A stretch of DNA of 64,000 nt from Thermodesulfobacteriota bacterium. Lineage in GTDB: Bacteria > Desulfobacterota > Syntrophorhabdia > Syntrophorhabdales > JANXAF01. A program made the translations under genes and the position numbers. The stretch is taken from the NCBI GenBank assembly GCA_025062045.1, contig JANXAF010000002.1:6765-70764 (forward strand). The letters run 5' to 3'. The notes beneath the pieces are model-generated. The model did not search any database, was not told the origin of the DNA, and saw only the letters and a program-made list of their open reading frames with translations. Shown here one piece after another: positions 52,139-52,890 of this stretch (position 1 is its first letter; the number at the start of each line of letters is the position of its first letter).

Positions 52139-52890
52139 CTTGGGCTCCTTCTGGTCTCTGATATTAAAAATCCTTCCCTTTCTAACTCTCCCAAAAGCTT
52201 AATGGCCTTACGCATTTCCAATTCACGAGATTCTTCTAGCCAAGCTTTGGGGTCTATTCCTTTCTTTCTTGATCTTAGGATAAGGACCATCCTTATCTTG
52301 TCGAGTATAAGCTTCTCGATCATCCTCTCTACATCCCTATCATTGAAAAGTTCATCTATGGCCTTTACGCTATTTTCAGGGAACCTCAGTCTTTCCCTCT
52401 CAACCAGCTTTATATATGGTAAGAGACTGAGTACCGCATCTAGCCTTTCGGTAAGGACTTCTTGTGCCAAATTTTCTTTCTTTCCTATTGGGCCTAAATC
52501 CTTCATCTCTTTGATGAAACTATTCATGACCTCCGCAAATCTCACCCCTTCTGCCGACGAGAGGAACTCCATCCTTAGCCTTTTGGGATCTAACCCTATA
52601 AAGCCGAAGATTCTTTTTAAAAGCAGTGTCATGGCGTAAGCGTGCAGATTCCCGTCCGTTGCATAATGGCATTCCCCAGGAAGACAGCCTACTATTATGA
52701 TCCCGTCTGCCCCTTCCTTTAGGGATGTTATCACGAAGGAAGGGTCAACCCTTCCTGTGCACATTACACGGATTAACCTGATATCTGGGGGGTATTGCAG
52801 CCTGGAAACTCCAGCCAGATCGGCTGCCCCGTACCCTCACCAAAAACAAACAAAGCCTATTAGTTTTGGTGCGTATTCGAAGGTGTTCAT
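52126..52890 (-). CDS. bamF: BamF-like subunit (MvhD-like), predicted selenoprotein with an in-frame UGA (codon 18, 52837-52839)
   Basis: An AGGAGG SD precedes the ATG at 52890. Translation gives [51 protein letters not shown]..., in frame with the ORF-track fragment 52126-52764. The TGA aligns with the second Cys of the MvhD motif CxWCxY. Confidence 0.8.
52790..52836 (-). promoter_or_regulatory. Candidate bacterial SECIS hairpin immediately 3' of the bamF UGA
   Basis: On the mRNA, positions +4 to +50 can form GGGUA/UACCC, GCAGC/GCUGC and CUGG(A)/(U)CCAG stacked stems. The apical loop lies about 26-34 nt after the UGA. Confidence 0.5.

Follow-up and report, generated by a model that had tools for sequence, protein, structure and literature searches.

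An in-frame UGA in the bamF gene of a Thermodesulfobacteriota bacterium very probably encodes selenocysteine

The DNA analysed here, called the window below, is a 64 kb stretch of contig JANXAF010000002.1 from a Thermodesulfobacteriota bacterium (positions 6,765-70,764, forward strand). Its minus strand carries the genes of a class II (tungsten-dependent, ATP-independent) benzoyl-CoA reductase, with an MvhD-like gene between bamE and bamG; because its neighbours make up a complete bamBCDEFGHI set, this gene is bamF. In the list of open reading frames (ORFs) made for the window, bamF begins at an internal methionine (position 52764), which is codon 43 of the gene as read below, and 134 nucleotides (nt) in front of this start are left apparently non-coding. 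An earlier note on this DNA had pointed out the unassigned stretch and had proposed that it holds the true start of the gene and an in-frame UGA for selenocysteine (Sec). Our analysis leads to the same view: UGA codon 18 of bamF very probably encodes Sec, and the apparently missing start would be a gene-calling error in a known selenoprotein. The coordinates of all features are collected in Table 1.

Direct reading of the minus strand recovers the arrangement described in the earlier note, in which a Shine-Dalgarno sequence, AGGAGG, precedes an ATG at 52890. Between this ATG and the TGA at 52839-52837 there are 17 sense codons, and translation through the TGA continues in frame to the stop codon at 52128-52126. 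There is no Shine-Dalgarno sequence before 52764. The three closest relatives of the gene (L001-L003, 63-67% identity) share the bam gene order, the TGA and the peptide flanking it, and the peptide upstream of the called start, including the TGA and the arrangement of Shine-Dalgarno sequence and start, is common to their contigs; the window's TAGGAGG-N4-ATG is also found in L001 and L002. The five closest database entries (P0002-P0004, P0007 and P0008), to which the contigs L001-L003 belong, are 204-212 residues long and have the same called start, MC(T/S)G(R/K)VD, as the mis-called ORF of the window, except that P0007 begins a few residues further in. An alternative genetic code with UGA as a sense codon was considered and dropped: since 19 of the 49 long ORFs in the window end in TGA as an ordinary stop codon, UGA is not generally read as sense. 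When other genes split by TGA were sought across the window, a Cys-like context was seen in bamF only, the remaining cases being adjacent genes or off-frame noise, and no second candidate selenoprotein gene was found there.

The recoded protein was searched against domain profiles with Cys written at codon 18. Residues 11-133 match positions 2-123 of the 123 positions of the Pfam FlpD/MvhD profile PF02662 (E 3.9e-44), with a score of 150.1 bits against a curated cut-off of 22.3. Without the N-terminal extension upstream of Met43 this domain would be incomplete. BamF is read as a [2Fe-2S] adaptor subunit that has an MvhD/FlpD domain and, C-terminal to it, an extension of some 110 residues. The MvhD/VhuD chains 5ODC_D, 7BKB_F, 8RVU_F, 9SW2_D and 9SFI_K from the PDB match the recoded protein with E values of 1.5e-40 to 1.9e-28, so that both flanks of the TGA are MvhD-like, as the earlier note had judged. 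It had also placed the TGA at the second Cys of a CxWC motif, and this position holds: codon 18 aligns with Cys16 of the MvhD chain in 5ODC (...GFCCNWCTYGGAD...), and in a gapless alignment with Cys-type BamF homologues the TGA column corresponds to an invariant Cys. The invariant Cys/Sec columns of the domain in this alignment are C15, U18, C44, C69 and C74. The C-terminal extension aligns with homologues that have precomputed Pfam helix-turn-helix hits (PF01022 and PF12802); the C-terminal part of the window protein itself gave no Pfam match, winged helix-turn-helix included, even at E <= 10.

The alignment of homologues suggested in the earlier note as a way to look for Cys/Sec pairs was extended to a larger sample. 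With a BamF alignment as query, one genome per species was scanned, which gave 80 loci; the window protein, used against metagenomes, gave 80 more. In the tally of 163 related loci, window included, the column holds TGA in 129 and TGY (TGT or TGC, encoding Cys) in 34, with no other codon. The TGA carriers comprise the window, L001-L003, 49 genome loci and 76 metagenome loci. Loci with TGA and TGY at this column are referred to below as Sec-type and Cys-type, respectively.

Conservation downstream of the TGA extends to the RNA. Numbering nucleotides from the U of UGA, the consensus of nt +25 to +40 in Sec-type genes is GCUGGAGUUUCCAGRC, nearly invariant including third codon positions; in the window this core of the putative selenocysteine insertion sequence (SECIS) reads GCUGGAGUUUCCAGGC and occurs once in the 64 kb. 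The 16-mer GCUGGAGUUUCCAGAC is present in 103 of the 129 Sec-type loci, and the window variant ...CCAGGC is common to three others. Across 110 distinct Sec-type sequences, metagenome loci included, nt 26-29 (CUGG), 31-32 (GU), 35-38 (CCAG) and 40 (C) do not vary. In Escherichia coli fdhF the corresponding GU of the loop lies at nt 23-24. Codons +8 to +12, which encode A-G-V-S-R, have entropies of 0.00, 0.16, 0.42, 0.00 and 0.51 bits in 44 Sec-type sequences, as compared with 1.32, 1.81, 1.47, 0.94 and 2.10 bits in 29 Cys-type sequences, which encode the same five residues with mixed codons. The other 27 conserved four- and six-fold codons within the first 100 codons of the same Sec-type sequences range from 1.27 to 2.33 bits, with the sole exception of the Leu codon +7, which adjoins the core (0.83 bits). 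Given the peptide and the codon usage of the window, the chance of the five core codons is P ~0.006. The synonymous sites of codons +8 to +12 are thus frozen in Sec-type genes only, a pattern in codon usage that points to selection on the element at the RNA level.

In agreement with this, RNAalifold recovers a consensus structure with pairs 26-30/34-38 from the Sec-type alignment and nothing comparable from the Cys-type alignment. The 60 nt that follow the UGA in the window form an interrupted hairpin of three helices (4-8/46-50, 13-18/38-43 and 27-30/34-37). We compared this element with the published bacterial SECIS (bSECIS) constraints, namely a loop of 3-9 nt, an upper stem of 4-16 bp, a G in the first two loop positions, a distance of 16-37 nt between UGA and loop, and an MFE (minimum free energy) of -7.5 kcal/mol or lower, with a typical loop pattern N1-G-[G/U]-N-N2 in which N1 and N2 can pair (PMC13188914, Fig. 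2 legend). The window element agrees with all of them: the 5-nt loop is AGUUU with a pairable A30:U34, the stem has at least 4 bp, the spacing is 26 nt, and the MFE of nt 23-42 is -7.5 kcal/mol, exactly at the model threshold. The earlier note had described a long interrupted hairpin from +4 to +50. This hairpin does fold as described (MFE of nt 4-50, -18.0 kcal/mol) and conforms to the bSECIS constraints, but only its apical part, +23 to +42, is conserved, and the hairpin is no more stable than expected by chance. Across homologues, 79% of cells are paired in the basal helix 4-8/46-50, but this helix consists largely of two Tyr codons and is inseparable from protein constraint. The middle helix 13-18/38-43 is probably specific to the window, because only 63% of homologue cells are paired. 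As judged from these alignments, the functional element would be the apical stem-loop (52817-52798), and a role for the rest of the long hairpin is possible but unproven.

Several observations weigh against the Sec reading. The stability of the hairpin corresponds to z = -0.44 relative to dinucleotide shuffles, and to z = -1.3 (P ~0.10), -0.95 and -0.72 relative to synonymous recodings (3000 recodings of the same peptide, with codon usage drawn from the window); folding energy was therefore rejected as a discriminator, as none of these scores is significant. Because the core pairs never vary across Sec-type sequences, there is no covariation for or against them. The register of the stem extension is ambiguous, a model with a 25/39 mismatch having 82% of cells paired and a model with a bulged nt 39 having 93%; in the mismatch register, the 16 sequences that have Ser in place of Ala acquire U25:A39 or U25:G39. 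Rfam scans of the region (E <= 10) and of the whole window (gathering thresholds) returned no SECIS family, the sole match being a chance psbNH on the other strand. Finally, neither a tRNA-Sec nor selA, selB or selD was found in the 64 kb (ARAGORN, which reported no tRNA; Rfam; family scans of 28 ORFs). Window ORFs of sel-gene length were identified instead as indolepyruvate:ferredoxin oxidoreductase alpha, DnaB, AtpD, LysS, QueA, MtnA, a WtpC-like protein, a molybdopterin oxidoreductase, AtpA and GatB. We infer Sec machinery in this organism solely from the intact, Sec-type-specific SECIS.

This last point gives some room to the reading that the UGA is read through with another amino acid (Cys, Trp or Gly, by near-cognate or suppressor decoding), for example because the Sec machinery has been lost, since what is known of that machinery in this genome comes from the 64-kb window alone. 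Low-level read-through of UGA does occur in bacteria. We nevertheless consider this reading improbable: the downstream element fits the SelB-type SECIS model and is under Sec-specific selection, those lineages that gave up Sec at this site show TGY together with degenerate downstream codons, and low-level read-through would be a poor route to a stoichiometric subunit of a catabolic enzyme.

A real stop at 52839, with a 17-residue peptide or nothing made from the upstream codons and a functional BamF translated from Met43 (52764), is the default reading under table 11, and the database calls of the window protein and its closest relatives begin there. This reading is highly improbable. In all relatives the 42 codons upstream of Met43 encode a conserved peptide, which fills out the FlpD profile, the Met43 product would be devoid of Cys15 and Sec/Cys18 and hence of two of the domain's five invariant Cys positions, and there is no Shine-Dalgarno sequence before 52764, whereas AGGAGG precedes 52890. 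A real stop would also leave the Sec-specific synonymous constraint downstream of the TGA without a reason. Although a single base separates TGC or TGT from TGA, the reading that a Cys-type gene acquired the TGA by nonsense mutation, or that the TGA is an error of assembly or sequencing, which would make bamF a private pseudogene or an artefact, is practically excluded because the TGA is kept at this column across loci (identical in 128 independent loci from different samples and lineages), and also the residue after it follows the Sec-type pattern (G/A/V) rather than the Cys-type CC, the window has the exact Sec-type SECIS core, and both the gene and the operon are otherwise intact.

With the UGA read as Sec, the ribosome would initiate at ATG 52890, and SelB with Sec-tRNA(Sec) would be recruited by the SECIS within the coding sequence, binding the apical stem-loop, which lies some 20 nt downstream of the UGA. 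At 52839-52837 Sec would be inserted as residue 18, and translation would run to the stop at 52128-52126, giving a 254-residue MvhD-type [2Fe-2S] adaptor. In this product Sec18 would take the place of a conserved Cys in the CxxC/U motif that lies beside the cluster without being one of its ligands. As in the case of Sec19 of Geobacter metallireducens, Sec18 may lie on the electron path from the BamGHI input module to the bifurcating FAD of BamE and may take part in selenol/thiol redox chemistry; its redox role is carried over by homology, and Sec insertion and SelB binding are likewise predicted from the features described above.

Table 1. Positions of the features of bamF and of the other bam genes in the window.
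Feature	Position	Strand	Description and evidence
bamF, full coding sequence	52126-52890	minus	254 codons including putative Sec codon 18, plus stop codon; translation, PF02662, PDB matches, gapless homologue alignment
Shine-Dalgarno AGGAGG	52895-52900	minus	overlaps bamE stop codon, 4 nt before ATG; direct reading
True ATG of bamF	52888-52890	minus	peptide at the N terminus in register with full-length Cys-type homologues from residue 1 on
In-frame UGA, codon 18	52837-52839	minus	CxxU motif C15-F-W-U18; column tally, invariant-Cys alignment
Mechanically listed short ORF	52126-52764	minus	start Met43; without Cys15 and Sec18; database entries of close relatives likewise shortened, 204-212 aa
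Extended interrupted hairpin, nt +4 to +50	52790-52836	minus	basal helix 4-8/46-50, middle helix 13-18/38-43; only partly present in homologues
Apical stem-loop of putative SECIS, nt +23 to +42	52798-52817	minus	CUGG/CCAG stem, nt 26-29/35-38, plus 2-3 more pairs; loop A30-G31-U32-U33-U34 (52810-52806); RNAalifold, pair counts
SECIS core, codons +8 to +12 (A-G-V-S-R)	52800-52815	minus	nearly invariant; codon entropies; single occurrence in window
bamB	57747-59711	minus	tungsten-containing catalytic subunit; PDB 4Z3W match, E 1.2e-232, 777 bits
bamC	57181-57759	minus	ferredoxin-like; Pfam
bamD	56026-57177	minus	HdrD-like with CCG domains; Pfam
bamE	52899-56009	minus	fused double HdrA, 1036 aa; stop TAG 52901-52899; Pfam and NCBIfam HdrA matches
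bamG	51692-52138	minus	NuoE-like; Pfam
bamH	50028-51695	minus	NuoF-like; Pfam
bamI	49417-50028	minus	NuoG-like; Pfam

The catalytic subunit of the operon is of the BamB kind and not a generic aldehyde:ferredoxin oxidoreductase (AOR): it matches the G. metallireducens benzoyl-CoA reductase (4Z3W) over its full length with 777 bits, while the best AOR match reaches 220 bits; bamG, bamH and bamI form a NuoE/NuoF/NuoG-like input module. The remaining content of the window is consistent with an anaerobic aromatic degrader: it encodes an IclR regulator, an acyl-CoA dehydrogenase, a BcrAD/BadFG-type ATPase and a WtpC-like ATPase, as well as an AMP-forming CoA ligase with a TRAP transporter. The closest named relatives of the GatB protein of the window are from Syntrophorhabdaceae metagenome-assembled genomes (MAGs; ~70% identity), and its best match is from a MAG labelled 'Deltaproteobacteria bacterium' (79%).

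The flanks of the bam cluster (47461-49443 on the plus strand, 59716-60492 and 60549-62294 on the minus strand) are conserved in related contigs. An IclR regulator lies directly upstream of bamB in L001, L003 and L084, with a DUF362 protein further upstream in L084, and a Kef-type Na/H-exchanger with TrkA domains is convergent after bamI in L001 and L003. An ATPase of the BcrAD/BadFG family (activase or class I reductase ATPase type; E 1.1e-66) and an acyl-CoA dehydrogenase are encoded next to each other (44850-45629 and 45883-47082, minus strand) a few kb downstream of the bam cluster, which itself is ATP-independent. The WtpC-like tungstate ABC transporter ATPase (24193-25254, minus strand) scores 347 bits, under the equivalog cut-off of 440; it adjoins two ORFs (neighbours 22443-24196), possibly permease and binding components. 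Such a transporter would suit the tungsten demand of BamB. On the plus strand, 32358-37416 encodes an indolepyruvate:ferredoxin oxidoreductase alpha subunit (704 bits, above cut-off) after which come an ORF of 271 aa and a molybdopterin (bis-PGD) oxidoreductase of 808 aa whose subfamily is uncertain; the TGA that separates these last two is an ordinary stop of adjacent genes, not a Sec codon. Two intervals, 27532-28705 (~1.2 kb) and 43308-43939 (~0.6 kb), contain no ORF of at least 120 aa and no gathering-level Rfam match.

The larger sample also allows the distribution of Sec and Cys to be compared within BamF and between BamF and BamE. The CxxC motif of the window BamE (DCSMC; Cys74/Cys77, 55790-55779, minus strand) is encoded by TGC/TGC and is thus Cys-type. 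Among 54 related loci, nine (L012, L015, L020, L027, L046, L050, L053, L065 and L078) have TGA at the second Cys of this motif (DCSM*ILSPK). All nine have a Sec-type BamF as well, so the loci with Sec in BamE look like a subset of those with Sec in BamF, as far as can be read from these codons. Within BamF, the residue after Sec is Gly in 80, Ala in 44 and Val in 5 of the 129 Sec-type loci, never Cys (Gly in the window, codon 19 at 52834-52836), and the residue after the Cys column in the 34 Cys-type loci is Cys in 32, Ser in one and Thr in one. A rough neighbour-joining tree places the Cys-type proteins in what is essentially a single clade nested among the Sec-types, with two Fitch changes; there were therefore few independent events, and the correlation between Sec or Cys and its neighbour may be historical rather than functional. 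Since G/A/V follows Sec in 129 of 129 loci and a vicinal Cys is present in 32 of 34 Cys-type loci, a Cys-Cys pair may substitute for Sec in the hand-over from one- to two-electron transfer beside the [2Fe-2S] cluster; the near identity of the SECIS core in sequence across bins labelled as many phyla suggests that the bam cluster travels with an unusually rigid SelB-recognition element. Taken jointly, these two proposals are tentative and we consider them rather unlikely to hold; neither pattern was found stated in the literature cited here. One Desulfatiglandales MAG has both a Cys-type (CNWCSY) and a Sec-type (CNW*GY) BamF-like gene (L014, CAXXXE010000006.1, and L029, CAXXXE010000002.1).

For annotation, bamF of the window should be given as 254 codons with Sec18, and not as a 212-residue fragment without two of the five conserved Cys/Sec positions. 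Selenoprotein genes are usually mis-called by ORF finding, and most close BamF relatives in public protein sets are likewise shortened (204-212 aa). In both samples Sec is commoner than Cys in BamF (129/163 loci), and public protein entries are therefore commonly N-terminally shortened. The Sec reading further implies that anaerobic degradation of benzoate and other aromatics by this organism needs selenium as well as tungsten, which bears on cultivation and on trace-element limits of bioremediation. It opens no new question, as a structure from Geobacter has already shown Sec in BamF.

The cryo-electron microscopy preprint on the class II benzoyl-CoA reductase of G. metallireducens models Sec19 beside the [2Fe-2S] cluster of BamF, in keeping with the earlier note's statement on the Geobacter protein; there BamF joins BamGHI to BamE as an MvhD-like adaptor, with a [2Fe-2S] cluster that passes single electrons on towards the bifurcating FAD, and its C-terminal extension of more than 100 aa carries a winged helix-turn-helix (bioRxiv 10.64898/2026.04.10.717634). 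In methanogen MvhD the position of Sec19 is taken by a Cys near the cluster that forms a regulatory disulfide, and the authors suggest a selenenylsulfide intermediate for BamF (bioRxiv 10.64898/2026.04.10.717634). The window shares with G. metallireducens the order from bamB to bamI, an MvhD-type domain followed by an extension of about 110 aa, and an N-terminal CxxU with Sec at residue 18 here and 19 there. We liken Sec18 to Sec19 through the Geotalea sp. SG265 orthologue (L079), whose TGA stands in the same column and which shares the SECIS core, and through a residue number that agrees within one. The two differ in that identity to Geotalea-type BamF is only ~45-50%, the motif is CFW-U-G rather than CTW-U-A, and the host lineage is Syntrophorhabdaceae-like (GatB neighbours ~70-79% identity) and not Geobacter.

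MvhD/VhuD (PF02662, CxxU) is a listed prokaryotic selenoprotein family, as the earlier note had stated (PMC13188914), and BamF shares with these proteins the fold, the conserved Cys set and the [2Fe-2S] adaptor role to an HdrA-type bifurcating flavoprotein (PMC13188914; PMC13518236). MvhD differs in being about 140 aa long and docking to a [NiFe] hydrogenase, whereas the window BamF has 254 aa and its gene lies between those of the HdrA-like BamE and the NuoEFG-like BamGHI; archaeal VhuD uses an archaeal SECIS in the 3' untranslated region, unlike the in-frame bacterial SECIS (PMC13188914). Like the bSECIS consensus and E. coli fdhF, the window has an in-frame hairpin directly after the UGA with a small apical loop that has an early G and then a U (PMC13188914), but it departs from the prototype in having only four invariant core pairs, followed by the 25/39 mismatch or the bulged nt 39, and in matching no Rfam family. 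Sec-UGA codons have been described in mvhD and bamE of Desulfococcus multivorans (PMC5109826). BamE/HdrA selenoproteins (CxxU, thioredoxin-reductase-like domain) belong to the same enzyme complex and follow the same recoding logic, but the window BamE is Cys-type, which leaves Sec in BamF alone. In no respect tested is the window bamF new; it adds another member, in a Syntrophorhabdaceae-like lineage, to the known Sec-BamF kind.

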